NCBI GenBank assembly: GCA_023246655.1
Contig: JAHFHX010000002.1
Span: 31,693 to 95,692, forward strand
DNA: 64,000 nt
Source of the DNA: Candidatus Magasanikiibacteriota bacterium
GTDB lineage: Bacteria; Patescibacteriota; Patescibacteriia; Magasanikbacterales; GWA2-37-8
Direction: 5' to 3'
Below, in pieces: positions 2,535 through 55,395 of the stretch (its first letter is position 1; each line of letters starts with the position of its first letter). The position numbers and the translations under genes were made by a program. The notes beneath the pieces were generated by a model that had not been told where the DNA came from, made no database searches, and saw only the letters and a list, made by a program, of their open reading frames with translations.

Positions 2535-3227
2535 TCACTGAACTACAACTTCTCCTTGTCTTATAATTTCTAACTTACTACTGACCGCACTTACAATCGT
2601 TGTTGGCTTGTGCCGAGGCAGTTCGCCATAATTCAAAATAATATCTGGTTGTACTTCCCTATTTTCAAATTGTGCAATAATCTCAGCTGCAGTATAGATA
2701 TCCCCCGTATCGGCAATATTCCCTGACGTTGCGACAAGTGGCCGACCCAATTTTTCGGTGATGGATTTGAGGAGCGGGTGGGCGGTGACACGGATGGCGA
2801 GGGTGTTGTCCTGGGAGACGACGCCGGCGACTAACGTGTCATTGCGAGGAGCCCGATTCGCATCGGGCGACGTGGCAATCCCCCTGCTTTCAGAGCCAAT
2901 TGCCATAACGGGGAGATTGCTTCGCTTCGCTCGCAATGACAGGTATTCCCCCACCACCGTCACCGCCCCCGGCCAATACTTACTCGCAATTTTCTCCAAG
3001 AGCTCATTCCACATCACATATCGCCTCGCCATCTCCACCGTGGGAACGACAACAAGCAGCGGTTTATTGTTCCGCCGGCCTTTGATCTTGAAGATTCTAT
3101 CAACAGCTTCTTGATTCGTGGCGTCACAACCCAAGCCGTAGGAAGTTTCGGTAGGGAAAACGAGAGTTTTGCCGTTAAGGAGCTCGGAGACGATTTGGGC
3201 AAGGTTACACTCGGTGATAATCTGCAT
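2535..3227 (-). CDS. tsaC: L-threonylcarbamoyladenylate synthase TsaC/YrdC/Sua5 family, with an in-frame family-A insert.
   Basis: LVFPTETSYGLGCDATNQEAVDRIFKIKGR...LVATSGNIAD. The insert peptide is SLRAKRSNLPVMAIGSESRGIATSPDANRAPRNDTLV. Confidence 0.75.
   Translation of the reverse strand: MQIITECNLAQIVSELLNGKTLVFPTETSYGLGCDATNQEAVDRIFKIKGRRNNKPLLVVVPTVEMARRYVMWNELLEKIASKYWPGAVTVVGEYLSLRAKRSNLPVMAIGSESRGIATSPDANRAPRNDTLVAGVVSQDNTLAIRVTAHPLLKSITEKLGRPLVATSGNIADTGDIYTAAEIIAQFENREVQPDIILNYGELPRHKPTTIVSAVSSKLEIIRQGEVVVQ
2838..2941. repeat. Family-A palindromic element, in frame in tsaC.
   Basis: gtcattgcgaggagcccgattcgcatcggg...gcaatccccc...ggggagattgc...ctcgcaatgaca. Confidence 0.75.
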
Positions 3228-3228
3228 A

Positions 3229-3338
3229 AAATTTTTAATTTACAATTTTCAATTTATACTGAATTTTCAATGTCTCAATTTTCATTGAAAATTAGTAAAT
3301 TGAATCATTGATTGAAAATTAAAAATTAGAAATTGAAA
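3229..3338. repeat. AT-rich dyad element (family D; TTTTCAAT x3 ... ATTGAAAA x4) between tsaC and prfB.
   Basis: The words caattttcaatt and attgaaaattaaaaatt recur at 29733-29800 and 21285-21303. Confidence 0.45.
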
Positions 3339-3339
3339 A

Positions 3340-4416
3340 TTATTTTTTAATCCACCTCAAATACGCCTCGCACAATGGCATTAAGTCTCCTTCTAAAACT
3401 TCTTCTGGATTCGTGGCCTTGTATTCCATGCGATGATCATTAACCATGTGATACGGATGCAACACGTATGAGCGAATCTGGTTTCCCCATTCTGCAGACT
3501 TGTATTCGCCACGTAACTCTTGCCGTTCTTTCGCCATTTTTTCTTCTTCGAGACGATGTAATTTGGCTTTCAGAACTTTCATAGCGACTTCTTTGTTTTG
3601 GGTTTGCGAGCGTTCGTTTTGGCATTGGACGGTGAGGCCGGTGGGAATGTGGACGATGCGGACGGCCGAGTAAGTAGTGTTCACACTCTGCCCACCTTTA
3701 CCGCCACTCATAAAAGTATCAACTCTCAAATCTTCTGGCTTGATCTCAATTTTGATCTCATCACTAAGCTCGGGCAAAACTTCAATGAGTGCAAATGACG
3801 TGTGCCTCATCTTCTCCGCGTCAAACGGAGAAATGCGAACTAAACGATGTACGCCATGTTCAGATTTTAAATAACCAAAAGCATAGCGGCCTTTCACTTC
3901 AAACATCACAGATTTATAACCCGCTTCCTGCCCACGCGATTCGTCAATAATACGCGTTGACCAGCCTTGCTTTTCACAAAACCTCATTACCATTCGAAGC
4001 AACATCTCCGCCCAATCTTGGGCCTCGGTACCACCACTGCCAGCGTGGATAGCCACGATGGCGCTGTTTTTGTCGTATGGCCCATTAAGGAGAAGAAAAA
4101 ATTCGTAGTCGGTAAATTGCTTTTCCAATTCAGCAGTTTGTTTTTCAATTTCGGTAGTGAGCGATGCATCACCAGACTTATCTAGCTCAATTAACTCGTC
4201 TACTTGTTTGCTTAGAGCATCCCATTTTTCTACTTCACTTTTGATATCTTGATAATCCTGAGAAACTGTTTGCGCGTTTTCAGGATTACCCCAAAAATTG
4301 GGCTGGTTCATTTCATCCCCGAGCTGTTGTAATTTATTTCTTAAACTATCAATCTTGAGAAGCTGGGTTGTTTGTTGAATTTTCTCTTTTAATAAATTCA
4401 ATCGTTCAATCGTCAT
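3340..4416 (-). CDS. prfB: Peptide chain release factor 2.
   Basis: GGQ motif (SGGKGGQSVNTT) and the RF2-specific SPF motif (RISPFDAEK). The 358-aa ORF is contiguous. Confidence 0.9.
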   Translation of the reverse strand: MTIERLNLLKEKIQQTTQLLKIDSLRNKLQQLGDEMNQPNFWGNPENAQTVSQDYQDIKSEVEKWDALSKQVDELIELDKSGDASLTTEIEKQTAELEKQFTDYEFFLLLNGPYDKNSAIVAIHAGSGGTEAQDWAEMLLRMVMRFCEKQGWSTRIIDESRGQEAGYKSVMFEVKGRYAFGYLKSEHGVHRLVRISPFDAEKMRHTSFALIEVLPELSDEIKIEIKPEDLRVDTFMSGGKGGQSVNTTYSAVRIVHIPTGLTVQCQNERSQTQNKEVAMKVLKAKLHRLEEEKMAKERQELRGEYKSAEWGNQIRSYVLHPYHMVNDHRMEYKATNPEEVLEGDLMPLCEAYLRWIKK

Positions 4417-5128: not shown

Positions 5129-5935
5129 ATGGACGCACAACAGCAACTCCGCCGGAAATATGCCGGCAAAACGATCGTCGTAACAGGCGCCACGTCCGGC
5201 AACGGGCAGGCACTGGCCAACCTGCTGCTCGCCCTGGGAGCAGTGGTCATCGGCCTCGGACGGAACGTCGCCCGCCTCGCGGAGTTGGAATGCCGCGGAG
5301 GCATTCCGTACCAGCTCGACCTCAGCGACTTCGCGGCCATCGACGAATTCGTCACGTGGTTTGATTTGCATTATGAGCGATGCGATGGTCTCTTCCATCT
5401 GGCCGGGACGACGCTGGTGGGAGAGGCTGGTGCGGCTGAATTCCAGGCTTTCAAGGCAGCGGACCTGGATGGCCCCGTCCGCCTGGCGGAGGGGTTCTTA
5501 AGCACTATGAACCGCGGCGCAACTGTGGCGATGGTTTCGTCAATCGCCGCAGCTGTGCCCGAAGCGCATGGCCTCCGCCAGTATGCGGAGGTGAAAGGCG
5601 CTGTCGCGAGCTGGTGCGGGCAAAATCGCGCGCGGTTCACGGCGTCAGGCGCAAACCTGATGCTTATCGCAATGGGGGCGATCGCGACCAACGTTGGCCG
5701 CAGTGCCGGGTTGGGCGGCGCCTTTAACCGCGCAGCTGAAATGCTGCTGCCGCCCCCGGAGCGGTACTCGCCGCAAATTCTCAAGGACGCCGCCGCGGGC
5801 AAGCCTGCCAGCTTCCCCGGCCGCTTCGCAAGCCTGACCACCTACCAGAACGGCACCTGCCAAGTACGGGTCGGGCGCAAAGCGCTCGTTCTGGCACTCG
5901 AAGCAGGCGTTTGGTTCGCGCACCTCGGCAAGTAG
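5129..5935 (+). CDS. Short-chain dehydrogenase/reductase (SDR) encoded in a about 65% GC islet.
   Basis: TGATSGNGQA Rossmann motif, catalytic Ser (MVSS) and YAEVK (YxxxK). GC content contrasts with the neighbouring sequence. Confidence 0.75.
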   Translation: MDAQQQLRRKYAGKTIVVTGATSGNGQALANLLLALGAVVIGLGRNVARLAELECRGGIPYQLDLSDFAAIDEFVTWFDLHYERCDGLFHLAGTTLVGEAGAAEFQAFKAADLDGPVRLAEGFLSTMNRGATVAMVSSIAAAVPEAHGLRQYAEVKGAVASWCGQNRARFTASGANLMLIAMGAIATNVGRSAGLGGAFNRAAEMLLPPPERYSPQILKDAAAGKPASFPGRFASLTTYQNGTCQVRVGRKALVLALEAGVWFAHLGK

Positions 5936-6043
5936 GCACCCACTTGCGCAAGCAACAAACCAGCCCACAATGTCCTTAACGCAAGATTAATTAAAAACTC
6001 TTGCTCTGAGGACAGGGCTGGTTTTTTGATCTAGATACCAAAA

Positions 6044-6080
6044 TCCCCTCGCAACTACGAGGGGATTTTATTATTGTTTT
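6044..6080. terminator. Bidirectional intrinsic terminator.
   Basis: aaaatCCCCTCGcaactaCGAGGGGatttt is flanked by A and T runs and lies between a convergent gene pair. Confidence 0.6.
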
Positions 6081-6202
6081 TATCAGACCACCACAACTCT
6101 TGTCACAATCTAACTTGATCATGCTGAGAGTTGTGCGTGGTGGTCTGATTCCAGATTGCTCGCCCCCCGTCACTATTAACGGGGGGCACTGGTGCGGGCC
6201 GC

Positions 6203-6364
6203 CTAGCGGTGCGGCTGCGGGTGGTGGGTGGCGAACAGCCAACCCAACGCCGCCAGCCCGCCTACCGCCAACAGCCCGCCGGCCACGTTGTGGCCGGAAA
6301 GCCCCACGATGGGGCCGGACGCGGCGACGACCGCCGCGACCGTAATGCCAACGATGCGCTTCAT
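6203..6364 (-). CDS. Small hydrophobic peptide (about 53 aa) in the GC-rich islet.
   Basis: GGAGGAGGtgcccATG precedes MKRIVGITVAAVVAASGPIVGLSGHNVAGGLLAVGGLAALGWLFATHHPQPHR. Confidence 0.4.
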   Translation of the reverse strand: MKRIVGITVAAVVAASGPIVGLSGHNVAGGLLAVGGLAALGWLFATHHPQPHR

Positions 6365-6598
6365 GGGCACCTCCTCCCCCGCTTGCAAACAGCCTTTTGG
6401 CTGTATACCGCATAAGGAGGGGGGATCCCACACGGCAAGCAGAACATCTCTTAAAGATAGGCTACTTGCCGAGAAGGAATTACATTTAAAAAGAACTTAT
6501 TTTCTTTTATAACTATACAGAATAGCATAAAATTTTATTTTTGTCAAGTATTATTTACTCATTGAGTGATTTGTGTGGATAACTAATACCTTATATTA

Positions 6599-7562: not shown

Positions 7563-8406
7563 TCTGGTAAGTTAGCCATTCGGGAAAAACACTCGCGCCT
7601 CGCACATCTTTTTTAAAATCAAAATTTTCCCGTTCACGGCGCGCCGCCTTATATATCCCCGGAATATTTCTCCCCTCAAAAATAAGAAATTGCGGCAGAC
7701 TCGCGGTTGTTCCTAATGAACCAATTTTTCTTATTGTCCCACGAAGTTCTTGCTCTATCTTTGCCCGTAAACGTTCTCGCGGCACCCGATCTGGCCACGC
7801 GCGCTCAGTCGCTAACAATAATTCCTGCTCAATGGTACGCGTTTCGGCAACCAATTCAACCGCACCATCCTGTTCAAAGGCCTCCTCTTGGCCTCTGTGC
7901 TCTGCTAACGTTTTACCAATTGTATCGGTGGGGATATCAAATTCCCGAGCAATAAGTGTTTTTTCGGCACCAACGCTTCGCTCAAATATTTCACGGATTG
8001 CATCACTCGAAAATTGTAACCCTCTCATTACACGCACCAATATTGCTGGATTGCCTCGAGCAATGTCAAAGGCTAAGGCCTGTTTTTCTTCGTCACAAAA
8101 ATCAATTTGCGCGTGTTCCTGAAATTTAAAAAATAGCTCCAGATTTTCTCGAGCAATAGAGAGACCGACTGATAATTTTTCTACCGGGGAGAACCCCATC
8201 GCTTCCAAGGAGGCCGCAATTGCTGGCATCCGCTCGCACACTGCTTTTACAAGCAACAGTCGTTCCGCATCATATGGTTCTTTTTTGAGCGCGGCTTCGA
8301 GTGCGAGCGTAATAAGAGAAGATGGCGGCGTTTTTTGTTCCCTATCTTTTTTGTCTCTTCTAAAAAAACTATCAACCATCCAGGCTACACGTTCTCTAAT
8401 ATTCAT
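7480..8406 (-). CDS. Hypothetical protein (possible N-terminal portion of a kinase-like protein).
   Basis: 308-aa ORF with no recognisable motif. Confidence 0.4.
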   Translation of the reverse strand: MNIRERVAWMVDSFFRRDKKDREQKTPPSSLITLALEAALKKEPYDAERLLLVKAVCERMPAIAASLEAMGFSPVEKLSVGLSIARENLELFFKFQEHAQIDFCDEEKQALAFDIARGNPAILVRVMRGLQFSSDAIREIFERSVGAEKTLIAREFDIPTDTIGKTLAEHRGQEEAFEQDGAVELVAETRTIEQELLLATERAWPDRVPRERLRAKIEQELRGTIRKIGSLGTTASLPQFLIFEGRNIPGIYKAARRERENFDFKKDVRGASVFPEWLTYQIDKALQLDIVPPTIVRDGPDGFGSVQD

Positions 8407-8424
8407 ACTCGGACTATCCCGTTT

Positions 8425-8718
8425 CTAAATTAGCTTCGGAGAAGCTACGACGAAATCGTTTACAACCTCTTCTTCCTGTACCGGCGTTGCAAATAGGTAC
8501 GCATTGTGAAAATGCCGTGATATCGCCTGCAAAAATACTTCACCGTCTTTTGGCAACACAGGAAGAGCGTTATCTTGAGATATTCCTTTTTCTAAAAGAT
8601 TGACTACCAATTCCTCTCCGGAACAGCGAACGGATCCATTTTCAAAAATACACCGTGCAACCACAGTGCCGCTCCATACAATAGCATTGAAACTAATTAT
8701 GTCTACCCATTTAGTCAT
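8425..8718 (-). CDS. Hypothetical small protein.
   Basis: 97-aa ORF positioned between the kinase-like gene and msrB. Confidence 0.3.
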   Translation of the reverse strand: MTKWVDIISFNAIVWSGTVVARCIFENGSVRCSGEELVVNLLEKGISQDNALPVLPKDGEVFLQAISRHFHNAYLFATPVQEEEVVNDFVVASPKLI

Positions 8719-8823
8719 ACTTCTTCGTTAAAATTGGTTTGTCCTTTACTACTGATCTAACTGCTTAAAATGTTAACACGTTTCACCTTTGCCAACAAAT
8801 TCATTTGCATCAAAAACTCTCCG

Positions 8824-9243
8824 TCATGGAGAGCTTTTGATTACTTGTGTATCTTTTTTCTTAAAATCCAGCGACGCCGAATTGATGCAAAACCGTTGGC
8901 CGGTGGGTTTAGGGCCGTCGTCAAACACGTGGCCGAGGTGGCCGCCACACCGGTTGCACATTACTTCGGTCCTTATCATGCCGTAGGTTGTATCGGAATC
9001 CATCATCACATTCTCCTTGGCTACTGGAGCATAAAAGCTGGGCCAACCGGTGCCAGAATCAAATTTGGTATCGGAGGAGAATAGCTCATTGTCGCAAGCG
9101 GCGCAGACGTACATCCCGGCATCGTGGTTATCCCAGTACTTGCCGGTAAAGGCGGCTTCGGTGCCTTTCTCAAATAGTACGTGCTTTTGTTGTGCGGTGA
9201 GAGTAACCATTTTTTGTGAATTGATATTAGGAGATATTTTCAT
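8824..9243 (-). CDS. msrB: Peptide-methionine (R)-S-oxide reductase MsrB.
   Basis: CAACDNELF...GTGWPSF...[21 protein letters not shown] (SelR fold, both CxxC pairs). Confidence 0.9.
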
Positions 9244-9286
9244 AGGACTATACTAAAACGGCGAGGCTGTTAGGATATTTTGTAGT

Positions 9287-9640
9287 TTAGTTTGGAATTT
9301 TTTTTACATAACCTTTCTTAAAATCCTCGATAAGGAATGACTTGGTTCCTTCGCCTTCATACACAACCCTCATGAGTTCATATGGAGTTTTGCCGAACGT
9401 GTTATAATCTAGCATAATAAAATCTTCTACCTCCCCCACTTTTCTTCCGTACTCTGTTTCAATTTCGACCCGATCACCTACTTTAAAACCAAGCTCGTTA
9501 AATTTCTGCTCCGCGGCCTTATTCGCTTCTTCGAATGATTTGTAATCTGGCAGCATTTCCCCCGCAAAAACTGCTCCATCATCACCAGGTGGGGGGGCGA
9601 CTCCTTTTTTACCTTCTTTGAAGAATCCAAACATATACAT
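9287..9640 (-). CDS. Hypothetical protein.
   Basis: 117-aa ORF embedded between msr genes. Confidence 0.35.
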   Translation of the reverse strand: MYMFGFFKEGKKGVAPPPGDDGAVFAGEMLPDYKSFEEANKAAEQKFNELGFKVGDRVEIETEYGRKVGEVEDFIMLDYNTFGKTPYELMRVVYEGEGTKSFLIEDFKKGYVKKIPN

Positions 9641-9676
9641 TTTTATATAATAAATCGAAACTTACATTATGAACGG

Positions 9677-10303
9677 TTAACGTTTGCGTTTGCTAGCGTT
9701 CACCGCATCCGGAATAAAAATAAGGGCGGCGCCGTTCATGCAGTAGCGTTTGCCGGTGGGGAGCGGGCCGTCGTCAAAGACGTGACCAAGGTGACCACCA
9801 CATTTAGATATTACCTCAACTCTGGTTTCAAAGGCAAGGGAGTGATCTTCTTTTATAACCACTGCGTCTGGTTTAATCGGCGCCCAAAAACTCGGCCAGC
9901 CGGTGCCGGAATCATATTTCTGCTCGGAGCGAAATAGTGGTTCACCACAATCGGCGCTCACGTAGGTGCCCGGACGCGTTTCAAAATCCAGGGGGCTACT
10001 AAACGGGCGCTCCGTTCCCTTTTGACGAAGAATATAATACTGCTCGGGCGTAAGTTTGCGCCGCCACTCAGCGTCGGTTATGCTGATGGTGGCAATGGGA
10101 GTGGAAGAAGCACGCATCTCGAAAGTGCTTTTACGACGAGCATCTAAATTTTGTCCGACACGAAACGCCCAACCAATTTGGCCAATCGCAAGAGCAAAGC
10201 TCAGCACTACGGTGATGACGAGGATAATGAGAATGATTTTATACGAATGGGACATGATGTGATGGTTGGAAATTATGTAAAGAGGTCTGGCTTCTTTACA
10301 CAT
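9677..10303 (-). CDS. msrB: MsrB with an N-terminal transmembrane anchor (likely extracytoplasmic).
   Basis: [21 protein letters not shown] helix, then ADCGEPLF...GTGWPSF...[15 protein letters not shown]. Confidence 0.85.
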
Positions 10304-10784
10304 GACACGTTCCTAACCCGCGTTTGTGCAAATACTGCTGGTGATATTCTTCCGCGCGGTAGAATGGCTCGGCGGGAACAATTTGGGTGACAATTGGATT
10401 TTTGAATTTGCCGGACTTATCCATCATTTCTTTAGACGCGCGAGCCACTTGTTCTTGCTCGGGAGTGTAGAAAAAAATGACCGAGCGATATTGACTGCCA
10501 TAATCTGGTCCCTGGCGATTCATGGTGGTGGGGTTGTGGTTTTCCCAAAAAAGTTTTAATAATTGTTCATAGCTAACCCTGCTAGGATCATATGTAATGT
10601 GCACAACTTCAGCATGACCAGTATCATCGCTGCAGACATTTTCATAACTTGGATTTTTCTTGGTACCGCCCATAAAGCCTGCGGCGGTTTCTACCACACC
10701 GGGAATGACACGAAATAATTCCTCTACTCCCCAAAAACAGCCGGCGCCAAAGGTGGCTTCTTGTGACTTTATTGAATTTTCCAT
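10296..10784 (-). CDS. msrA: Peptide-methionine (S)-S-oxide reductase MsrA.
   Basis: [15 protein letters not shown] active-site motif. The stop overlaps the downstream msrB start. Confidence 0.9.
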
Positions 10785-10944
10785 AAAAAATGTATATACT
10801 AGACTAAAGAAGTCAGCAAGGACCGGCTTCTGTTAAAATCAGTATATTATATTTAAAACTATATGTCAAGTATACTTGACATAGATAATTAATTTAAGTT
10901 ACAATTAGTGGGCTTACACGTTTGGCATAATTGTCCTCCCCTTA

Positions 10945-11050
10945 CGAAGGGGAAGTACGGAGGGGTCAACGCTTTGTGGCGATGCAACGTAGACCACCCC
11001 ACGCCCCTTCCTTCGGCAAGCTCAGGACAGGCTCTTCTTAAGGAGGGGAC
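10945..11050. repeat. Family-C GC-rich hairpin element (CCTCCCC-loop-GGGGA...) in the intergenic region.
   Basis: tcCTCCCCttacgaaGGGGAagtacGGAGGGGtc...ccccacgcccc... Confidence 0.4.
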
Positions 11051-11089
11051 AAACACGAAGATCTTCATCAATTTAACTCTCAACAACTT

Positions 11090-11452
11090 ATGCAATTCAA
11101 CAAGCTCACCCCCGAAGAAGAAGCTATCATTATTCATAAAGGCACCGAACGCCGCGGCAAGGGCGAATATACTGATACATTTGTGGAAGGCACCTATGTA
11201 TGCCGTCAGTGCAATACGCCGCTCTACACCTCGGACAGCAAATTCCACTCCAATTGCGGCTGGCCAAGCTTTGACCAGGAAATTCCTGGCGCCGTTAAAC
11301 GCACACTGGATGCGGACGGCTCACGCACCGAGATTACGTGTAACGCCTGTGGCGGCCACTTGGGCCATGTGTTTGTAGGCGAAGAATATACTCCAAAAAA
11401 TACTCGCCACTGCGTAAACTCACTCTCATTAAAATTTATTCCGAAAAAATGA
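11090..11452 (+). CDS. msrB: MsrB (third paralog).
   Basis: [24 protein letters not shown]...[14 protein letters not shown]. Confidence 0.9.
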
Positions 11453-11465
11453 ACACGATTTTAGT

Positions 11466-11726
11466 TTAAACCCCCAGAGCCTGATCAATTTTTACTTTGT
11501 CAAATCCTATAATAATCGTACCGTTGATATCAATAACTGGTACCCCCATCTGGCCGGATTTGTGAACCATCTCCTCAGCTTTTGTCTGATCCTCAGCTAC
11601 ATTATAATCCGTAAAGGCAATATTTTTAGATTTAAGATAATCCTTAACTTTATGACACCACGGACACACCGGCGTGGAATAAATAATCACTGACGAATTT
11701 GCCATTGTATTTTGCATACAATACAT
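11466..11726 (-). CDS. Glutaredoxin-like protein (NrdH/YruB type).
   Basis: VIIYSTPVCPWCHKVKDYL...GVPVIDINGTIIIGF. Confidence 0.8.
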   Translation of the reverse strand: MYCMQNTMANSSVIIYSTPVCPWCHKVKDYLKSKNIAFTDYNVAEDQTKAEEMVHKSGQMGVPVIDINGTIIIGFDKVKIDQALGV

Positions 11727-11845
11727 AATTAATAATGAATTATAAATATAGTATATAATGCAATTTTAAAAAAGTCAAATTGACTTTACTCTTGCTTTAA
11801 AATACCTGTTGACAATATGCTCTGGTTCTACTACTATTTAGTAAT

Positions 11846-12058
11846 ATGAAAGAAACTATTCGTAATCGCGTCAACGAACTACGAACTGCTAATGCTATTA
11901 CCCAAGAGGTGCTCGCCGAGTCGGTGGGAGTAACCCGCCAGACTATTATTGCAATTGAAAAAGGTAATTATATCCCTTCAGTTTTATTAGCTTTAAAAAT
12001 TGCACGTTTTTTTAAGAAATCAACAGAAGATATGTTTTCTATTATTTATGAAAAATAA
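11846..12058 (+). CDS. XRE-family HTH transcriptional regulator.
   Basis: VLAESVGVTRQTIIAIEKGNYIPSVLLALKIARFF. A TTGACA-N17-TACTAT promoter lies at 11809-11837. Confidence 0.8.
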   Translation: MKETIRNRVNELRTANAITQEVLAESVGVTRQTIIAIEKGNYIPSVLLALKIARFFKKSTEDMFSIIYEK

Positions 12059-12419
12059 ACGACTGTGGAATGAAGCAACTTTATCGGTTCTGCTTATTGC
12101 TCTGGCTTCCCTCTGTTTAAAACCCTTAGAACAAATGTGGATGCCGAGTATGTATTCCTCACTCATACTTATTGCTTTAGCGGTTGTTTTTATTTTCTTA
12201 GCTATTTTTATTTGGAAAGAAAATGTACGAGATGAGCGCGAAAATCAACACCGCTTAATGGCCGGCCGATTTGGTTTTTTGGTGGGGGCAGGCACGCTGG
12301 TGGCCGGGATTATCATCCAAACCCTCCATGAACAACTAGACTCATGGCTTTTGGTAGCGCTCATCGCCATGATTATTGCTAAAATTGGAGGGCATGTGTA
12401 TTACCAATCTAAAAATTAA
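12047..12419 (+). CDS. Small membrane protein partner of the XRE regulator.
   Basis: The ATG overlaps the regulator stop. It has 3 hydrophobic segments. Confidence 0.45.
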
Positions 12420-12518
12420 GCGCGGTGATCTTATCCACATTGCAAGGTGTAAAGTTTACTTTACACCTTTTTTAATTGTGATATACTACCATTCAATTAG
12501 ACTTAACTTCACAACACT

Positions 12519-13103
12519 ATGCGCAAAACATCTCGTTCGCTCGCAGCGCTGGCTGTCGCGTTCATGACGCTGGGCGCTGGCTGTGCCCAGGCTCCGCAAG
12601 CCGCAGTCCAACCGGCCGCGGAACAAACCGAAAGCACGGCGATGGAACAAACAGTGCCAGGCTCTACCGAAGGCGTGATGGAAAAAAAAACCGAAGCCAC
12701 AATGCAGCGGCAGGAACCGGCGATGGCACAATTCACCGGGACGGTGCTGGCTGGAAAATCCGTCCCGCTTTTGGACTTTAACAAAAGCGATTATGACATG
12801 GCTATAAAATCGGACAAACTCGTGGTGCTTTATTTTTACGCTTCATGGTGCCCGGAGTGCCAAATCGAGTTCCCTAAAATGCAAGCCGCGTTTAACGGGC
12901 TCACCGGCGACAAGGTGGTTGGCTTCCGCGTAAACTTTAATGATTCCGATACCGATGACACTGAACAATCCCTGGCACGCGAATTTGGTGTGGCCTACCA
13001 GCATACCAAAGTGTTTGTGAAAAATGGGACGCGTGTCCTTAAGGCACCGGATTCGTGGGATACGGAGCGGTATATGACTGAAATCGCGAAAGCGATACAA
13101 TAA
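12519..13103 (+). CDS. Thioredoxin-fold lipoprotein (TlpA/ResA-like redoxin).
   Basis: Signal peptide plus lipobox LGAGCAQ, and the YASWCPECQ CxxC motif. Confidence 0.75.
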   Translation: MRKTSRSLAALAVAFMTLGAGCAQAPQAAVQPAAEQTESTAMEQTVPGSTEGVMEKKTEATMQRQEPAMAQFTGTVLAGKSVPLLDFNKSDYDMAIKSDKLVVLYFYASWCPECQIEFPKMQAAFNGLTGDKVVGFRVNFNDSDTDDTEQSLAREFGVAYQHTKVFVKNGTRVLKAPDSWDTERYMTEIAKAIQ

Positions 13104-13108
13104 TTTTG

Positions 13109-13221
13109 TGTCATTGCGAGCGAAACGGAGAGTGAAGCGAAGCAATCTCCCTGTTTAAGTAATTCTCAAATCCAGGGGATTGCCACGTCGTTCGCCGCGA
13201 GGCTCACTCCTCGCAATGACA
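13109..13221. repeat. Family-A palindromic element (intergenic).
   Basis: gtcattgcgagcgaaacggag...gcaatctccc...ggggattgcc...ctcctcgcaatgaca. Confidence 0.7.
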
Positions 13222-13257
13222 CACTACCACCTACAACCTAATTCTTAATTCCTCATT

Positions 13258-13968
13258 ATGTCCCCCACCAACCTCATTTTCTCTTTCACCGCCGGGCTCG
13301 TGTCGTTTTTGGCGCCGTGCGTCCTCCCCATTATTCCGGGCTTTTTGGCCTACCTCGCGGGGGCGTCCTTGGCGGACAGCACGGGGTCAAAGCGCAAAGA
13401 CGTGTTTATCAATAGCGTATTTTTTGTGCTGGGATTTTCGCTGGTATTTGCGGCACTCGGAGTGCTTTTGAATTCGGTACTGGAACGGGTGGCGTATGAT
13501 GTGCAAATTTGGCTGGGGCGCGTTGGGGGCCTCATTATTATTTTCTTTGGGCTGTATTTGACGGGGCTTATTAAAATTGGATTTTTAGAGAAAGAGTATA
13601 AGTTTAAAGTCACCACGAAATTCAAATCAAAATATCTTACGTCGCTTTTGTTTGGCGCGGCGTTTGCAGCCGGGTGGACGCCGTGCGTGGGGGCGGTCTT
13701 GGGCGGCATTCTGGCGCTCGCAGCCTCACAGCCCGGCTCGGCTTTTGCTCTCCTGCTTTCGTATTCACTAGGCCTGGGAGTACCCTTTCTGATTGTGGGG
13801 TTATTTGCCGCGCCAGCTTCGCGCCTCATCAATCGTTACGCCGGCGCCCTTAAGTACGTTAACTTTATCTTTGGGCTCATCCTCATCGCACTCGGAGTTT
13901 TGATTTTTACGAACAGTTTAAGTTTGGTTGCGAACTTTTCTTTGTTGAATAAGTTTTTGTTGAAATAA
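13258..13968 (+). CDS. ccdA: Cytochrome c-type biogenesis / thiol-disulfide transporter CcdA (DsbD core).
   Basis: FLAPCVLPIIPGFLAYLAG and GWTPCVGAVLGGILALA, the two conserved Cys-containing TM motifs. Confidence 0.85.
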   Translation: MSPTNLIFSFTAGLVSFLAPCVLPIIPGFLAYLAGASLADSTGSKRKDVFINSVFFVLGFSLVFAALGVLLNSVLERVAYDVQIWLGRVGGLIIIFFGLYLTGLIKIGFLEKEYKFKVTTKFKSKYLTSLLFGAAFAAGWTPCVGAVLGGILALAASQPGSAFALLLSYSLGLGVPFLIVGLFAAPASRLINRYAGALKYVNFIFGLILIALGVLIFTNSLSLVANFSLLNKFLLK

Positions 13969-13991
13969 TTAATCTTATAATCTTTCGTCTT

Positions 13992-14159
13992 ATGTTCTCT
14001 AGCCGACAAGTTACCTTCATCGTTCTCATTGGCGCTATCATCGCCGCGATTGCCTATCTGCAATTCCGTCAGCCGGTACGTCGCATTACTTCGTCGGCGC
14101 CTTCAATCGCGGTTGACCCGTACGCCAACCAACCTCCCCAACACCAACTGAAGAGGTGA
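13992..14159 (+). CDS. Small TM-helix ORF, a possible frameshifted N-terminal anchor of the next redoxin.
   Basis: MFSSRQVTFIVLIGAIIAAIAYLQF... The 14156 ORF frame is open upstream (PTSPTPTEEVTT) and joins at the ccaaccaacctcccc tract. Confidence 0.3.
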   Translation: MFSSRQVTFIVLIGAIIAAIAYLQFRQPVRRITSSAPSIAVDPYANQPPQHQLKR

Positions 14160-15244
14160 CTACGACCGCGCCAGAAAATGGCGCGATGATGAAAAAAGAA
14201 ACTCTCATCGTTAAACCAGCGATTAAACCAGCGGCTCAACCAGTGGCACCAACCCCTCAGGTATTGGTGAATAAAGCTAATAAATATCCAGCTGCCCGTG
14301 AGCTCGTGAGCCCAAGCGGATTTATTAATACGCCGCCGTTCACTCTCAAGAACCTGGTGGGCAAGAAAGTAATTCTCGTGGATTTTTGGACCTACAGTTG
14401 CATCAACTGTCAACGGACGCTCCCCTACCTTAACGCTTGGTACGATAAGTATAAAAACAAAGGATTGGAGATTGTGAGCATTCACACCCCGGAATTTGAT
14501 TTTGAGAAAAAATACGACAATGTGCAGGCGGCAGTACAAAAATACGGCATCAAATATCCAGTTGTAATGGATAACGATTATGCCACTTGGGACGCGTATC
14601 AAAATCGCTACTGGCCGCGCAAATATCTGGTGGATGTGGACGGCTACATTGTGTATGATCACATCGGCGAGGGCGGTTACGAAGAAACCGAGGCCAAAAT
14701 TCAGGAGCTCTTGGAAGAAAAAATGGCGCGCGAAGGCAAAAAAGATACGGTGGTGGACGGCTATGTAAAACCCTCCGGCGCCGTGACGATTGAAGCGGGA
14801 AGCCCGGAGACCTACTTTGGTTCCGCGCGCAATACCTACCTCGCGAACGGGGACGCGGGCAAGGCTGGCGAACAAAAGCTGACTGAACCATCCAACCTGA
14901 ATTTAAACGAGCTCAACCTCGCTGGCACCTGGAACTTTGCCCCCGAGTATGCCGAAAACACCACCGCCGGCGCTAAAATTATCTATCGCTACCAAGCAAA
15001 GGGCGTGTACTTGGTAGGCAGCGCAGTGAACGGCGTCCGGGCGCGCGTGCTACGCGACGGCAAACCGTTGACGAGTGCTGAAGCCGGCGAAGATGTCATT
15101 CTCAAAGACGGCCAAAGCTATGTGACGTTTAAGGAAGATCGCCTCTATAAAATTATCCAAGACAAAAACGGCGCCGGCGAACATACGCTTGAAATTATTA
15201 TTGAAGCGCCCGGCCTTAAAGCATTCGCGTTTACGTTTGGATGA
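14156..15244 (+). CDS. Thioredoxin-like redoxin (TlpA family) with a C-terminal extension.
   Basis: VILVDFWTYSCINCQRTLPYL...YPVVMDNDYATWDAYQNRYWPRKYLVD. Confidence 0.75.
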   Translation: MTTTAPENGAMMKKETLIVKPAIKPAAQPVAPTPQVLVNKANKYPAARELVSPSGFINTPPFTLKNLVGKKVILVDFWTYSCINCQRTLPYLNAWYDKYKNKGLEIVSIHTPEFDFEKKYDNVQAAVQKYGIKYPVVMDNDYATWDAYQNRYWPRKYLVDVDGYIVYDHIGEGGYEETEAKIQELLEEKMAREGKKDTVVDGYVKPSGAVTIEAGSPETYFGSARNTYLANGDAGKAGEQKLTEPSNLNLNELNLAGTWNFAPEYAENTTAGAKIIYRYQAKGVYLVGSAVNGVRARVLRDGKPLTSAEAGEDVILKDGQSYVTFKEDRLYKIIQDKNGAGEHTLEIIIEAPGLKAFAFTFG

Positions 15245-15308
15245 ATGAATTTAGATAGATCCGCCTGCCAGCAGGCAGTGAGTGAAGATCAAAAGTTACC
15301 AAAGACGC

Positions 15309-15340
15309 CCACTGTGGAGGGCGTCTTTTAATTTATTATT
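15309..15340. terminator. Bidirectional intrinsic terminator between convergent genes.
   Basis: aaGACGCCCactgtggaGGGCGTCtttt. Confidence 0.6.
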
Positions 15341-15349
15341 GCGATATTT

Positions 15350-17050
15350 CTACATCCCTTCCGCCGGCGTACACACCCCACCCAGTGCAACTGTTCCCTG
15401 TGGGCACACACAAGCGTTGCCATTCCATACAAAGGTGGCGGAACAGCTTTGCGGTGTTTCAGGACTCGCCGCTTTGAACCGGAGAGGTATAAACTCTGAT
15501 CTAACTAGAAATTCAGACTTGCTGGTATAACCGGAGGCGGCGCGGCCATCATTGGCTTTGGCTTCGATATACCAGGCATAATTACTGTCCCACTTGAGAT
15601 TACCGGCTGGAACCGTTGCCCAACTACAAACCCAGTGATTGGCGGCATCGGTACAATTTTTATCGACAGTTTCGCCTTTGTCCCAATCGCGTTCCCAAAC
15701 TTTTTGATTGGAGTCAGTATCGATAACGTACCAACGAAAGTAGGCTTTAATATTTTGGGGATAGGTCCAGATTAAGACTGGGTTCAAGGTATTAACCGTA
15801 ACGCTGTCGGTTGGGCTCGTAATGGTTGGTTTCGGGGCCTTGGCGGCTTCACAGCGCTGAATGGGCTCGGGTTGGTTTTGTTGGAGAATAATTACCCATT
15901 CACAGCCCATGAGATTGGCTTGACAATCAAACTTGTCGGTGAGTCGTTCACACTGCTTGTAGAAGCATTTACCCTCTCGTTTGGGATTATCAATGTCTTT
16001 TGGATCAGTCCATTTCCATTCACAGATGGGGGCAACGTTGCAAAAATCTTCCTTGACAATATCTTTACAGTTGGGAAGAGGTTTATCTTTACCCGGGTTC
16101 CAAGTGGCGGTGTTATTATTGGTGTTGTTCTCTTGGGTAATGCTTTTGATGGTCATGCCGAGGGAGAAGATGTCGTTTTTCCTGCCCGGTATGCGCCAAC
16201 TTTGGTAGGTAATTCCCCCAGCTGAGAGCGAGATATTAACAGAACTAGAAACAATCATGCTCTTCGGTGGGGTGGAAAGGTCAGAGCGAATGAGGACGTT
16301 TTCAAAACCACCTTTGGCTTCGGCTTTGCCGTTGTTATTAACACTGTAGATAACCAGAGTTTCGTTGGTCATGCGAGGGAGAAGGAAAACATCCCCAAAA
16401 GCAAGGTCGGGAGCGGGAGGGGCAATCTCAACGAAAAGAGGTTTGAGTTCTATTGGCTTAAGCATCATAACTTTGGGTTTACCTGGGACGGTGAAACACC
16501 CACCAATCAATCTCCAACTACAATCATTCCTGAGAATACAAACATTTTTATCGGAGAGTTTTTCACAGGCCGTATTCTGGGCCACTTCCAAAATAGTGCT
16601 GTTGTTATTTTCATCCCTTTCTATCACTTGGTTATTGCTGTCTACCAATATACTCACCTGCTGAACAGTGCCGACACTGTTAACCAATTTTTGAGAAAAA
16701 ACTGGAGTGTAGAAAACTTCTCTGCCAGCCTCAAAACCATCAACTTCAATTTTACTAATAAATACGGTGTTTTTATCACCCTGTAAAATGGTTTTGAGCG
16801 TAAAGGAAGTGGTAGGCAGATTGCCATCATTGCGCGCTTTAAAATTAACTACCATATCACCATTTTTATTGATGAGGAGGCTGACATTTTTGTCTACCAA
16901 TAAATCGGCTTGAAAGGCGAAAATTTTTTTGGTTTGGAACTGCATTTTTTGTACGGCTCTGGCCGTGTTGGTCATCCCCAATCCGAAAATAACTCCACAC
17001 AAAACTATCAAGCTAATTCGCCAGACATAATTGTGAATAGTGGTACGCAT
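15350..17050 (-). CDS. Secreted cysteine-rich surface protein with a CARDB-like domain.
   Basis: Signal peptide, ...IERDENNNSTILEV (CARDB C-terminal signature) and several Cys-rich modules. Confidence 0.55.
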   Translation of the reverse strand: MRTTIHNYVWRISLIVLCGVIFGLGMTNTARAVQKMQFQTKKIFAFQADLLVDKNVSLLINKNGDMVVNFKARNDGNLPTTSFTLKTILQGDKNTVFISKIEVDGFEAGREVFYTPVFSQKLVNSVGTVQQVSILVDSNNQVIERDENNNSTILEVAQNTACEKLSDKNVCILRNDCSWRLIGGCFTVPGKPKVMMLKPIELKPLFVEIAPPAPDLAFGDVFLLPRMTNETLVIYSVNNNGKAEAKGGFENVLIRSDLSTPPKSMIVSSSVNISLSAGGITYQSWRIPGRKNDIFSLGMTIKSITQENNTNNNTATWNPGKDKPLPNCKDIVKEDFCNVAPICEWKWTDPKDIDNPKREGKCFYKQCERLTDKFDCQANLMGCEWVIILQQNQPEPIQRCEAAKAPKPTITSPTDSVTVNTLNPVLIWTYPQNIKAYFRWYVIDTDSNQKVWERDWDKGETVDKNCTDAANHWVCSWATVPAGNLKWDSNYAWYIEAKANDGRAASGYTSKSEFLVRSEFIPLRFKAASPETPQSCSATFVWNGNACVCPQGTVALGGVCTPAEGM

Positions 17051-17073
17051 ACAAGAAAAAATGTAAAAAATAA

Positions 17074-19392
17074 TTACTGATTCTGAATATCAATAGTGAC
17101 TTCGGTCATATTCTGAGCTTCGCTCTTGGAAATTTTAATCTGATAGGTTTTTTCTTGTTGTGCTTTGAGACCAACTTTTTCACTAACCGCATATTGTTTG
17201 AGCTGGCCTTGAGGAGAATTGAGAGAAACCGTGGCATTAAAGCCGGCCGTTGGTAATAATAGACTATCGTTCTTTACCGAAAATACTAACCGATACTCAA
17301 AACCTTTGCCCTTACCAACAGGGACAACCTTTCTCGCGACATGAGGGGTTTGGTTAATCACCACGCCTCCATCGAGTGAGATCTCAAAAACATTATTATT
17401 CTCGTCGCTTTCGAATACCTGATCGACAGAATCAATTTTAACTCTCACTTTAGATACCGTATCACCCGCTTGCTTCAATGCTTCCAGTACATTGCTAACC
17501 GGCATATAAAAAATTTCTGGTTGGAGCTGGTTATGCCCGCGCACCTCTTTAGCACAAAATTTTGGCTTCGGATTTCCTAAGTAGTCGGTATAGTCCACCA
17601 CCTTGCCATCCTTAAGCACAAATTCTACGCTACAGTATACCCTTCCAAGGATGGGAAAAGGAAAGGTGCTCGAAAAACTCACTTCCGATACGGAGGGAGG
17701 CCCGGCATGCTTGAACAAATCAACTCCCAGTATTTTAAAGTCTCCTGGCACCGGCACCTCAACCATATTATTCTCCGGGTGCTTATCCTCGGCGTAGGTT
17801 TTTACATTAACTGAAAACCGAACGCTTTTTACTTGACCGCGGGTTTTTTGGAGGGCCAGCGGCAAATTAGGCACTTTGATGTACAATGGTTTCTTAAAGG
17901 GAAGATTTGGATAATAATTGGTGGGCACATTGCGGTAAATACATTCTTTTTGTTTATCTTTATCTAAGTAGTTTATATAATCAGCGGTTCTACCGTCATT
18001 AAACATAAGCTGCGCGTCACATTTTACCCATTCTAATGGGTACGGAAAAGAATTAGTAAAAGCAATCTCCGAAGATGGTTCGGCATCCGGTCCTTTAAAT
18101 AAATCTACTTCCACTACTTCCAAATCTCCCGTCAGGGGAATTTCAATAACATTATTATTTTCATTGGTTTCACTTACACTGTCCTCTTCAGTTCCATCCG
18201 ACTGTTTAATTTTTGGATCAATGGTAAATCGCATTTTAGCGGCAACACCGCTCATTACTTTTAACGCCTCGCCAAATCTAGGAACAATCAGCGTTAACCG
18301 ATCGGGGTTAACAATCATGCCGCTACAAGCGTTATACAAAAATTTATCAACTAGTACCTCCGCGTAATTTCTAATTTTGCCATCAGCATACACAAACTCA
18401 GCCTTACAACTGAGGCCTCGAGGAATGGGAAACGTACTCTCTACAGTAATTTTGGCTGATTTCTGAAAAGCTTTGTCAATAATACCCTCAGTCTCCACTT
18501 TTACTAATTTAAAATCACCTGTTGTGGATATTTCATACCCATTGTTGGTTTCGTCACTTTCAAATACCATGTTAGTATCATCGATAGTAAACTTAATTTT
18601 AGTAGCATGGCCGCCTATATTCCCGCCGAGGAGTAGGTTAGGGAGATAGCGAACGTAAAAATAGATTTCTTTGGGATTACTGCTGTCGACAATACACTTT
18701 GCTTCTTTTTTTAATGATAACCCCTCTACCGTGGTCATGCCGCCAAATAAGGAAGCGTAATTAACCACGGTAGTGGTTGTCATACCACCAAGTTTTTGGG
18801 AATATTTGTAGACGGACTCAATTTCTACTTTGCAGGTTACATTTTGATTGATAGGCTCCCCAAACGTGCTGGCAACCGTAATTTTTCCGGCGGGAATAGG
18901 TTTATTAGTGGTATTATCGGTATTCCACAATTCTACCCGCTTAATTGATAAATCACCGGCGTAGCTTACCGAGCGATTATCGTTTTCATCACTTTCGGTA
19001 ATGGCGTCCAGGTTGTCGGCTTTTATTTCAATACGGGCCACATCTTTATAGGCAGCGGCTACGTTCCGAGTAACAGCTCGCTGAGCGTTAACCTTAAGAC
19101 TCCCCACTTTTTCCGTGAAAACAATATTCTTGCCATTCCTTAAAACAACCGTTTCGGCAACCTGAAAAGCGGTAGCATCAAAGTCGGTGCTCGAAAGAAT
19201 ATAACTATAGGTAAATGATGGGTCATTAAGATTTACAACCGCGCTTTTTACTCCTTGAGAGAAGACAATATTAGGAAATTTTTGTTGTTTTTCAGCCACT
19301 TCGCCTTTTTTAGGCGCGGCCATGGCTGGTACAACACTTAAAAAAAGAGCCACAATAATAGCCGCGGGAAATGATTTTTTTATAGTGCGCAT
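17074..19392 (-). CDS. Secreted multi-CARDB-domain protein (about 6 tandem about 110-aa repeats).
   Basis: Signal peptide. Repeats each end in an E(S)DExNN motif (ESDENDNRSV, ESDETNNGYE, ETNENNNVIE, EDKHPENNMVE, ESDENNNVFE). Confidence 0.6.
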   Translation of the reverse strand: MRTIKKSFPAAIIVALFLSVVPAMAAPKKGEVAEKQQKFPNIVFSQGVKSAVVNLNDPSFTYSYILSSTDFDATAFQVAETVVLRNGKNIVFTEKVGSLKVNAQRAVTRNVAAAYKDVARIEIKADNLDAITESDENDNRSVSYAGDLSIKRVELWNTDNTTNKPIPAGKITVASTFGEPINQNVTCKVEIESVYKYSQKLGGMTTTTVVNYASLFGGMTTVEGLSLKKEAKCIVDSSNPKEIYFYVRYLPNLLLGGNIGGHATKIKFTIDDTNMVFESDETNNGYEISTTGDFKLVKVETEGIIDKAFQKSAKITVESTFPIPRGLSCKAEFVYADGKIRNYAEVLVDKFLYNACSGMIVNPDRLTLIVPRFGEALKVMSGVAAKMRFTIDPKIKQSDGTEEDSVSETNENNNVIEIPLTGDLEVVEVDLFKGPDAEPSSEIAFTNSFPYPLEWVKCDAQLMFNDGRTADYINYLDKDKQKECIYRNVPTNYYPNLPFKKPLYIKVPNLPLALQKTRGQVKSVRFSVNVKTYAEDKHPENNMVEVPVPGDFKILGVDLFKHAGPPSVSEVSFSSTFPFPILGRVYCSVEFVLKDGKVVDYTDYLGNPKPKFCAKEVRGHNQLQPEIFYMPVSNVLEALKQAGDTVSKVRVKIDSVDQVFESDENNNVFEISLDGGVVINQTPHVARKVVPVGKGKGFEYRLVFSVKNDSLLLPTAGFNATVSLNSPQGQLKQYAVSEKVGLKAQQEKTYQIKISKSEAQNMTEVTIDIQNQ

Positions 19393-30788: not shown

Positions 30789-30863
30789 TGTTATTTTTTT
30801 GTAAAAAAATTATTGACAAACAAAAATCTTTATAGTACTGTCTACGACAGAGGAGGACCCCCC

Positions 30864-31298
30864 ATGAAAAAGCAGGCTCTTTTTTTCGTGGCCCATGATG
30901 ACCACTTAACTCGCTCTCTCATCAACGAGGGTCTCAAGCGCGCCTTCCCCGGGTGCGTTGTTCGCGAATTCAAAAGCGAGCGAGAGCTGCGCGAGCGGCT
31001 CTTTGAGCCGGGCATCACAGGCGTCATAATGGGCGCCTGCCTGCGCTGGTGCTTCCCCAGCGCGAACATGGCGATCCCGCCTGATCTGGCAGAGACGGGC
31101 TACGCCAAGGGAGCTGCTTGGCGCTGCTGGCAGATGCTCCGCGCGAACCCCGCCACGGCGCAAACGCCGTTGCTTGTGTGGGAGTTTTCGACCCTCATGT
31201 TCCGGGCAACCCCACCCGAAGACCGCGCGACGACGTACCTCGACTACAGAGTTGAGTGTCTGCTTGAGGCCATCTCGATCTCGTCCGCCCCGCTCTAA
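30864..31298 (+). CDS. Hypothetical protein in a about 60% GC islet (possible receiver-like fold).
   Basis: GAGGAGGaccccccATG, with a TTGACA at 30814. MKKQALFFVAHDDHLTRSLINEGLK... Confidence 0.35.
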   Translation: MKKQALFFVAHDDHLTRSLINEGLKRAFPGCVVREFKSERELRERLFEPGITGVIMGACLRWCFPSANMAIPPDLAETGYAKGAAWRCWQMLRANPATAQTPLLVWEFSTLMFRATPPEDRATTYLDYRVECLLEAISISSAPL

Positions 31299-44301: not shown

Positions 44302-44346
44302 TCCGGCTATCTTCCTGGTGGAAGAAAAGAGACAAGGAGACCCAAA

Positions 44347-45208: not shown

Positions 45209-45211
45209 GAC

Positions 45212-55322: not shown

Positions 55323-55395
55323 GTTTTGTTAAACCAGCGCTGCTGACAACGCGGGTGTAGGCAGTTGCTTGCTAAGCTCTCTGGTCCTTTGGACC

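Follow-up and report, generated by a model that had tools for sequence, protein, structure and literature searches.

Positions 8824-15244 of the 64,000-nucleotide stretch of DNA analysed here (the window, to whose whole length all positions refer) hold a genuine cluster of methionine-sulfoxide-repair and thiol-redox genes, in the reduced genome of a Magasanikbacteria-like groundwater member of the Candidate Phyla Radiation (CPR). The window, part of a contig of 115.5 kb, encodes a GroEL that shares 83-86% identity with proteins of Candidatus Magasanikbacteria, which bears out the reduced genome assumed in an earlier reading made from the sequence alone (the sequence-only reading). Every gene named in that reading was recovered and is intact by domain, using an open reading frame (ORF) listing together with Pfam and NCBIfam profile searches. 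The domain calls below come from the same searches, and topologies were assigned from hydropathy, charge, lipobox patterns and orthology. The features are:

8824-9243, minus strand: msrB copy 1, 139 residues (SelR model positions 1-116 of 116, E 2e-52, 176 bits; TIGR00357 cut-off passed)
9287-9640, minus strand: ORFan of 117 residues between two msrB genes, no Pfam family
9677-10303, minus strand: msrB copy 2, predicted to be membrane-anchored and exported (SelR E 9e-44, 149 bits; N-terminal hydrophobic segment)
10296-10784, minus strand: msrA (PMSR, PF01625, E 2e-65, 220 bits, model positions 1-153 of 153)
10841-10905, no strand: divergent promoter-like region of msrA (minus) and msrB copy 3 (plus), from a consensus scan with 11 of 12 matches on each strand
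11090-11452, plus strand: msrB copy 3, 120 residues (SelR E 7e-42, 142 bits)
11466-11726, minus strand: small YruB-family glutaredoxin with a CPWC motif (TIGR02196)
11846-12058, plus strand: XRE-family helix-turn-helix regulator, 70 residues (HTH_3 E 1e-12)
12048-12419, plus strand: small multi-pass membrane protein, paired with the XRE regulator
12519-13103, plus strand: putative exported thioredoxin with a lipobox-like LGAGC and a WCPEC motif (Thioredoxin E 2e-10)
13258-13968, plus strand: CcdA (DsbD_TM, PF02683, E 3e-16, 59.8 bits against a cut-off of 27.1)
13992-15244, plus strand: DipZ C-terminal-type redoxin, with a transmembrane anchor at 13992-14159 and thioredoxin (SCINC) and Thioredoxin_10 domains at 14156-15244, split by a 1-nucleotide deletion
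41662-41982, minus strand: classical cytoplasmic thioredoxin with WCGPC (from the translation; weak phmmer match to the exported thioredoxin; adjoins infB)

We consider it rather probable that the region comprises two functionally linked redox units. The first (8824-11726) would be a methionine sulfoxide repair set, made up of MsrA, two cytoplasmic MsrBs, a YruB-type glutaredoxin and one exported, anchored MsrB. The second (11846-15244) would be a conserved five-gene module of XRE regulator, small membrane protein, tethered thioredoxin, CcdA and anchored DipZ-type thioredoxin. The same judgement covers the proposed link between the two, that the anchored MsrB sits at the surface and is fed by a relay of CcdA and thioredoxins, which would be its natural and plausible donor.

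All three MsrBs cover the whole of the SelR model (PF01641; positions 1-116 of 116, cut-off 24.9 bits), and any two share about 43% identity. Their catalytic cysteines share one alignment column (RFCIN, RYCMN and RHCVN). With a full SelR domain and the catalytic cysteine in each, none of the copies is a pseudogene, and all three are predicted to reduce methionine-R-sulfoxide. Copy 1 has the CxxC motif twice, giving four zinc-ligand cysteines, and a GTGWPSF motif in which threonine occupies the resolving position, as in the 1-Cys type. It lacks a hydrophobic N-terminus and is cytoplasmic, and its orthologs adjoin the anchored MsrB in two of the CPR loci that we compared (L004 and L005; L numbers denote compared loci). 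Copy 3 is of a short cytoplasmic type with all four zinc-ligand cysteines and a resolving cysteine (NCGWPSF). It scores 201 bits against NF004036 (cut-off 179) and shares 76-88% identity with over 100 proteins, of which all the named ones belong to the CPR; judged by these matches, it is an ordinary CPR MsrB. A recent duplication of msrB is ruled out by the mutual identity of about 43%, the differing cysteine architectures and the different NCBIfam subfamilies, and on these comparisons the three copies are old, distinct paralogs. The expansion to three copies had been called striking for an organism this reduced, a view that we do not share, since orthologs of each MsrB type are found in equivalent clusters within the CPR, where the 120-residue copy is commonplace.

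The anchored MsrB (copy 2) differs most from known enzymes. In its 120 closest homologs C103, C152, C172 and Thr118 are invariant, and the first cysteine of each CxxC is always lost while the second (C103, C152) is kept. These alignments define it as a distinct exported subfamily of the 1-Cys type, predicted to lack zinc and marked by an invariant cysteine pair. C103 and C152 stand at zinc-ligand positions and, by positional homology to those ligands, should neighbour each other; they could form a structural disulfide that replaces the zinc. The best solved match is human MsrB3 (PDB 6q9v, E 3e-38), which likewise lacks the usual resolving cysteine but keeps all four zinc-ligand cysteines, whereas the CPR subfamily has only the second of each pair. 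The N-terminal hydrophobic segment has a mean hydropathy of 3.1, and an export-type N-terminus is found in 104 of the 120 homologs, as a lipobox in 31 and as a hydrophobic segment in a further 73. Because of these N-termini we place the subfamily outside, and the anchored MsrB of the window is most likely extracytoplasmic.

Two start codons may be considered for the anchored msrB, ATG 10303 (208 residues) and ATG 10255 (192 residues). The translational coupling of msrA and msrB proposed in the sequence-only reading depends on the first, as the genes overlap by 8 nucleotides only if translation begins at ATG 10303, which has an AGGA 7 nucleotides upstream. ATG 10255 lies 40 nucleotides past the msrA stop and is favoured by gene callers and by the N-termini of homologs. 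An exact-sequence look-up returned a protein record for the 192-residue form and none for the 208-residue form.

MsrA itself has the GAGCFWG catalytic motif. Its domain begins at residue 9, so that the ORF leaves no room for a signal peptide, and the same is true of MsrA in four CPR loci (L004, L005, L017 and L033); from its sequence, MsrA is cytoplasmic. The extracytoplasmic placement suggested earlier is supported by sequence pattern and homology for the anchored MsrB and the exported thioredoxin and does not extend to MsrA.

The second unit supplies the parts of a transmembrane relay. CcdA, called in the sequence-only reading and well above its profile cut-off, has six hydropathy peaks, matching the six-helix core, and both conserved cysteines, in transmembrane helix 1 (APCVLP) and helix 4 (WTPCVG). 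Its loops 1, 3 and 5 are rich in lysine and arginine; with these loops inside, both termini are predicted to lie outside. In fused CPR orthologs of 534-611 residues the DipZ-type thioredoxin follows directly on helix 6 of the CcdA domain, and given an outside C-terminus this thioredoxin would face outward. The split DipZ-type orthologs all carry an N-terminal hydrophobic segment of their own.

Both redoxins had been described as TlpA-like. The second is present with its CINC motif (within SCINC) but is of the DipZ C-terminal type: it matches Thioredoxin_10 (PF17991) over model positions 1-142 of 142 (E 1e-30, 107 bits, cut-off 27.1), Redoxin at E 9e-13 and residues 57-318 of Mycobacterium tuberculosis DipZ (PDB 2hyx) at E 6e-55. 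Its Thioredoxin_10 domain is beta-rich and contains no cysteine. The first redoxin (12519-13103) has the CPEC motif and the export signal-like LGAGC that had been noted, but resembles classical thioredoxins more than TlpA or ResA. Its orthologs carry lipoboxes or signal anchors, and we take the product to be a probable exported thioredoxin.

The module can be followed across many CPR loci, which were compared by phmmer with the window proteins as queries on fetched loci. A metagenome scan with the thioredoxin domain gave 80 loci (L088-L167) at 61-73% identity, many from groundwater. CcdA lies directly downstream of the thioredoxin gene in 76 of these, and a split DipZ-type thioredoxin follows CcdA in 50, most of the others being cut by contig ends. 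The XRE regulator and membrane protein stand upstream of thioredoxin-CcdA in 38 of the 80 and in seven genomic loci. These seven (L004, L005, L007, L011, L015, L017 and L033) hold XRE, membrane protein, exported thioredoxin, a fused CcdA-thioredoxin-Thioredoxin_10 protein and the anchored MsrB together; MsrA and a cytoplasmic MsrB are often present as well. The DipZ-type gene is followed directly by the anchored msrB in L007, L015, L017, L033 and L014, and the two lie close together in L004 and L011; among the metagenomic loci the anchored msrB directly follows the split DipZ-type thioredoxin in two (L110 and L111), and a Kryptoniota locus has a DipZ-MsrB pair. The flanks of the thioredoxin-CcdA unit contain 21 msr genes in 337 kb, or 0.062 per kb, an enrichment of about 15-fold over the roughly 0.004 per kb expected of a 1-Mb genome with 3-4 msr genes. 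The redoxin and CcdA genes thus make up a conserved module in their own right, with a genuine but facultative link to msr genes, which argues against both a recent acquisition and an unusual expansion.

Several of the genomic loci that we call CPR by gene content carry record titles of the form 'uncultured Gammaproteobacteria'. The records of L005, L006, L008, L010, L011, L015 and L033, titled 'uncultured Gammaproteobacteria' or 'Pseudomonadales', are CPR-like in content and relatives and are probably mislabelled. L005, the closest genomic relative, encodes at 3141-3785 a membrane-anchored DM13 ('electron transfer') protein with a proline-rich linker, between msrA and a DipZ-type gene of the thioredoxin-only form; the latter has no Thioredoxin_10 domain and no signal.

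The relay may be pictured as follows. Cytoplasmic thioredoxin, the classical TrxA at 41662-41982, would reduce CcdA, and is the likely cytoplasmic source of electrons for CcdA and for the cytoplasmic Msr enzymes alike. From CcdA the electrons would cross the membrane to the exported thioredoxins, one or both of which would then recycle the exported 1-Cys MsrB: once this enzyme has reduced methionine-R-sulfoxide in a surface protein, its catalytic Cys172 would be left as a sulfenic acid, which the thioredoxins would reduce. In the cytoplasm, TrxA and possibly the YruB-type glutaredoxin would serve MsrA and the two MsrBs located there, and the XRE and membrane-protein pair would be the presumed regulator. 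We infer this electron path, with all of its transfer steps, substrates and regulation, from the gene content, the catalytic motifs, the export-type N-termini of the families, the gene order and the enriched linkage. The sequence-only reading had already proposed an extracytoplasmic MsrB fed by a CcdA-thioredoxin relay, and what now speaks for it is comparative, namely the export-type N-termini and the linkage in CPR loci.

Experimental precedents for a path from CcdA through a surface thioredoxin to a surface Msr are available for Streptococcus pneumoniae (PMC3914529), Fusobacterium nucleatum (PMC9239216) and Streptococcus gordonii (PMC7034828). In S. pneumoniae CcdA1/Etrx1 and CcdA2/Etrx2 supply MsrAB2 (PMC3914529; compare S. 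gordonii, PMC7034828), and the window shares with this system a CcdA, two proteins of the thioredoxin fold (predicted here to lie at the surface), a putative membrane-anchored Msr and the clustering of the genes. Etrx2 (PDB 2yp6) also matches the DipZ-type thioredoxin of the window (E 4e-9). However, the pneumococcal surface enzyme is a fused MsrA-MsrB, whereas in the window only an MsrB is predicted to be exported and MsrA is cytoplasmic. The presumed donors of the window are a classical-type thioredoxin on a long tether and a DipZ-type thioredoxin with Thioredoxin_10, there is one CcdA rather than two, and the regulator would be the XRE and membrane-protein pair. The msrAB-trx-ccdA-modRS locus of F. 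nucleatum (PMC9239216) likewise combines Msr, a thioredoxin-like protein and CcdA with a regulator of its own and is induced by peroxide there; it differs in its two-component regulator, its fused MsrAB and its diderm host.

Two further relatives concern the DipZ-type protein. M. tuberculosis DipZ (PDB 2hyx and 5cyy) shares the thioredoxin and the C-terminal beta-rich domain, and CPR relatives have the full fused CcdA-thioredoxin-Thioredoxin_10 form; in the window, as in the 80 relatives closest to it, CcdA and a thioredoxin with its own anchor are separate proteins. The next-best solved relative is the lumenal thioredoxin-like domain of Arabidopsis SOQ1 (PDB 7djj, E 2e-22). SOQ1 has been proposed to take electrons from CcdA and drive methionine-sulfoxide reduction in a compartment equivalent to the extracytoplasmic space (bioRxiv 10.1101/2024.11.01.621559). 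Its Msr activity is assigned to a cysteine-containing C-terminal domain, whereas the window has a canonical MsrB instead. An activity of this kind in the Thioredoxin_10 domain of the window was considered and rejected for want of a cysteine.

The island is a lineage-typical variant of the system known from streptococci and fusobacteria and not a foreign acquisition. What sets it apart from the known systems, as far as the sequences tell, is an exported MsrB without an exported MsrA, a zinc-less MsrB with a cysteine pair, a split donor of the DipZ type and an XRE and membrane-protein pair as presumed regulator. Full-text literature searches returned no paper tying the CPR or Patescibacteria to MsrB, or DipZ to methionine sulfoxide, or mentioning DUF2178.

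A number of observations weigh against the supply of MsrB by the relay. Any msr gene at all is found in only 12 of the 80 metagenomic loci and the anchored MsrB in only 2, while the anchored MsrB stands alone in L085-L087 and in several genomic loci; from this sparse linkage and these lone copies it follows that the relay probably has other or additional clients. Some 2.2 kb separate the anchored msrB of the window from the relay genes, which are encoded on the other strand and belong to another transcription unit. MsrA lacks an export signal, and surface repair would therefore be limited to one epimer, methionine-R-sulfoxide. The DipZ-type gene is frameshifted in the window, and the charge balance around the anchor of the window MsrB, taken alone, would favour the opposite orientation.

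The sparse linkage also invites an alternative that we regard as possible though clearly less probable, namely that the XRE-membrane protein-thioredoxin-CcdA-thioredoxin module is mainly a copper, metal or general envelope thiol-stress system (compare ScsBCD in copper tolerance). The msr neighbours would then reflect a loose clustering of stress genes, with no dedicated supply of MsrB, and in 68 of the 80 loci the module does occur with no msr gene nearby. Further support comes from the tether of the exported thioredoxin. The window protein has 63 residues between anchor and thioredoxin domain (12585-12770), of which 4 are methionine. Across a filtered set of 65 unique orthologs methionine makes up 11.0% of 4222 tether residues, against 0.9% in the thioredoxin domains of the same proteins and 1.0% in the DipZ-type proteins. 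These 65 tethers contain 151 MM dipeptides, typically within an xAMMEKK motif (examples of motifs are AMMEKK and DGTMVKP), and in a broader set of 76 tethers the methionine content is 8% or more in 51. A methionine-rich tether with MM repeats resembles the pattern of Cu(I)-binding periplasmic proteins. In one ortholog (L107) CopC and plastocyanin-type copper-binding domains, both above their Pfam cut-offs, lie inside the tether, and in others RskA_C or DUF6799 domains are inserted there. The window tether is only weakly methionine-rich, and that of L005 has no methionine. On the other side are the roughly 15-fold enrichment of msr genes beside the module and the several loci in which the gene of the anchored MsrB comes directly after the DipZ-type gene. 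The two roles are also not exclusive, as the methionines of copper-binding sites are themselves Msr substrates (PMC9302797).

These roles may even be combined, and we put forward a tentative idea that we hold to be doubtful as it stands. The five-gene module may be an undescribed, CPR-wide unit of envelope defence, in which the tether serves as a rechargeable oxidant sink or a Cu(I)-binding arm, the exported MsrB re-reduces the tether with electrons from CcdA, and the XRE and membrane-protein pair senses envelope stress. Scavenger and electron supply would then reside on one polypeptide, with the exported MsrB recycling the scavenger. There are parallels in MrpX, a periplasmic methionine-rich hypochlorite sink that is recycled by MsrP (PMC4436054), and in the copper chaperone CusF, whose oxidised methionines are repaired by MsrPQ (PMC9302797). 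The MrpX/MsrP (YedY) system of Azospira suillum (PMC4436054) likewise sets an extracytoplasmic methionine-rich polypeptide beside an extracytoplasmic methionine-sulfoxide reductase and a dedicated stress regulator. However, MrpX is a free periplasmic protein and MsrP a molybdoenzyme that reduces both epimers, whereas here the methionine-rich stretch is a thioredoxin tether, weakly so in the window itself (4 of 63), and MsrP has its counterpart in a thiol-dependent MsrB.

The frameshift raises a question of a different kind, whether the relay is partly broken in this strain. The 362-codon ORF at 14156-15244 has no anchor, and a hydrophobic ORF of 55 residues occupies another frame at 13992-14159. 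A contig from a separate assembly (L001), which matches the window at 99.95% identity over 7757 nucleotides with 3 substitutions and 1 gap, has an extra A near 14127 that joins the two into 417 residues, and in about 48 orthologs anchor, thioredoxin and Thioredoxin_10 are in one ORF. The deletion near 14127 reflects either an error of assembly or an inactivation specific to this strain. Were it real, the DipZ-type redoxin would be anchorless and cytoplasmic or would not be made, as in an incipient pseudogene, and only the tethered thioredoxin could act as donor. The deletion lies in a run of 2 as opposed to 3 A, with no long homopolymer, and the three further substitutions between the two assemblies speak for different strains. 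Moreover, the only version of this redoxin on record for the window's own contig is the truncated 362-residue product, and an exact-sequence look-up of the intact 417-residue redoxin found no record. Yet the frame downstream of the deletion is intact over 362 codons with all motifs, L001 and the orthologs have a single ORF, and single-base indels are common among assembly errors. We therefore consider a partly broken relay somewhat unlikely.

Much less probable is an anchored MsrB that faces the cytoplasm (N-terminus out, C-terminus in), repairs membrane-proximal cytoplasmic proteins and needs no CcdA relay. The hydrophobic segment is preceded by a charge of +1 and followed by +2 to +5, a pattern that is ambiguous alone but puts more positive charges after the segment than before it, and the MsrA encoded just upstream is cytoplasmic. 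Against this, the lipobox of 31 of the 120 closest homologs is compatible only with export, the loss of the zinc site with retention of a cysteine pair fits an oxidising compartment, and the anchored msrB is repeatedly found in operons with a DipZ-type thioredoxin predicted to face outward.

A recent acquisition of the redoxin/CcdA segment (12519-15244) by horizontal transfer, suggested earlier from its guanine-cytosine (GC) content, is the least credible alternative: the GC excess is real (0.507, against 0.431 for 8824-12518 and 0.452 for the window, with 4.2% of equal-sized windows as GC-rich), but the genes lie just 0.6-1.1 standard scores above the gene mean, within the gene-to-gene scatter and much like groEL (0.50), stronger outliers occur elsewhere, the same genes stand in the same order in the 80 metagenomic loci (61-73% identity) and in other CPR genomes, and neither flank of the segment has mobile-element genes or repeats. 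One such outlier is the short-chain dehydrogenase gene at 5129-5935 (plus strand), with a GC content of 0.64 and a third-position GC of 0.74. GC-rich ORF-like patches without family matches are also seen at 5991-6431, 30813-31298, 44307-45460 and 55369-55860.

If the anchored MsrB is indeed served by the CcdA-thioredoxin relay, this has some bearing on the biology of the CPR. These bacteria are tiny episymbionts that have shed most of their biosynthesis, and the genes that they retain are informative about their lifestyle. The conservation of a relay that has its own regulator and sends reducing power outward, often beside an exported MsrB, implies a core need, which would be to protect surface proteins, the zone of contact with the host cell, from oxidation and perhaps from copper. 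The comparison further defines an exported zinc-less MsrB subfamily, a split form of DipZ and a family of methionine-rich tethered thioredoxins. Because DipZ and msrB genes are repeatedly paired, MsrB is a concrete candidate client of DipZ-type proteins, whose physiological client has, to our knowledge, not been established. The interest of the region comes mainly from the five-gene module and its methionine-rich tethered thioredoxin, the island being ordinary for its lineage.

The glutaredoxin and the regulator pair deserve a few further remarks. The glutaredoxin had been called NrdH-like, and is better assigned to the YruB family: it scores 104.8 bits against TIGR02196 (cut-off 88.55) and does not reach the NrdH model TIGR02194 (42.3 bits, cut-off 85.75). 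A YruB-type glutaredoxin adjoins the module in 9 of the 80 metagenomic loci. The XRE regulator and membrane protein are borne out as a pair by the HTH_3 match and by their recurrence in the 38 metagenomic loci. The likely ATG of the membrane protein, at 12048, overlaps the XRE stop by 11 nucleotides, as it does in L004, and 42 orthologs conserve the motifs W-E-x3-DERE-x2-H and GI-x-Q-x3-H-x-D-WL. With hmmscan neither the 123-residue nor the 139-residue version gave a DUF2178 (PF09946) match at E <= 0.05 or any Pfam family above its cut-off; the identical protein has on record only a precomputed DUF2178 match labelled 'weak'.

Two palindromes were considered as operators for the XRE regulator. 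A perfect one of 22 nucleotides at 10862-10883, TATGTCAAGTATACTTGACATA, is formed by the two back-to-back TTGACA boxes of the divergent msrA/msrB3 promoter-like sites, and another, AAAGTCAA-A-TTGACTTT (GTCAA-A-TTGAC), lies at 11772-11788 between the glutaredoxin and XRE genes. They consist of back-to-back -35-like hexamers of divergent promoters, and GTCAA...TTGAC is not kept at equivalent sites in relatives; both more probably reflect promoter geometry than operators. The leader of msrB copy 3 (10906-11089, plus strand) runs for about 180 GC-rich nucleotides from the promoter-like site to the start. A hidden RNA element here was rejected, with no Rfam match at E <= 1 in 8300-15500 and a fold no better than shuffled sequences (z -1.05).

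Of the two small ORFs, that at 9287-9640 matched only itself and one weak repeat in an exhaustive phmmer search over 1.84 billion representatives, and is present in the near-identical contigs L001-L003; that at 8425-8718 had no family match in the profile search. Elsewhere in the window, a SAM riboswitch aptamer (57002-57109, plus strand, 57.9 bits) lies 90 nucleotides past a tRNA-Met (56838-56912) and appears to be an orphan, with no convincing ORF for about 530 nucleotides until tsaD at 57645. Directly downstream of the island (15350-19392, minus strand) are two large, secreted-looking proteins of 566 and 772 residues with CARDB domains and cysteine-rich repeats. Finally, the leucyl-tRNA synthetase of 1057 residues (35385-38558, minus strand) contains an Abhydrolase_1/Ser_hydrolase segment at residues 460-614, between its editing and catalytic parts.

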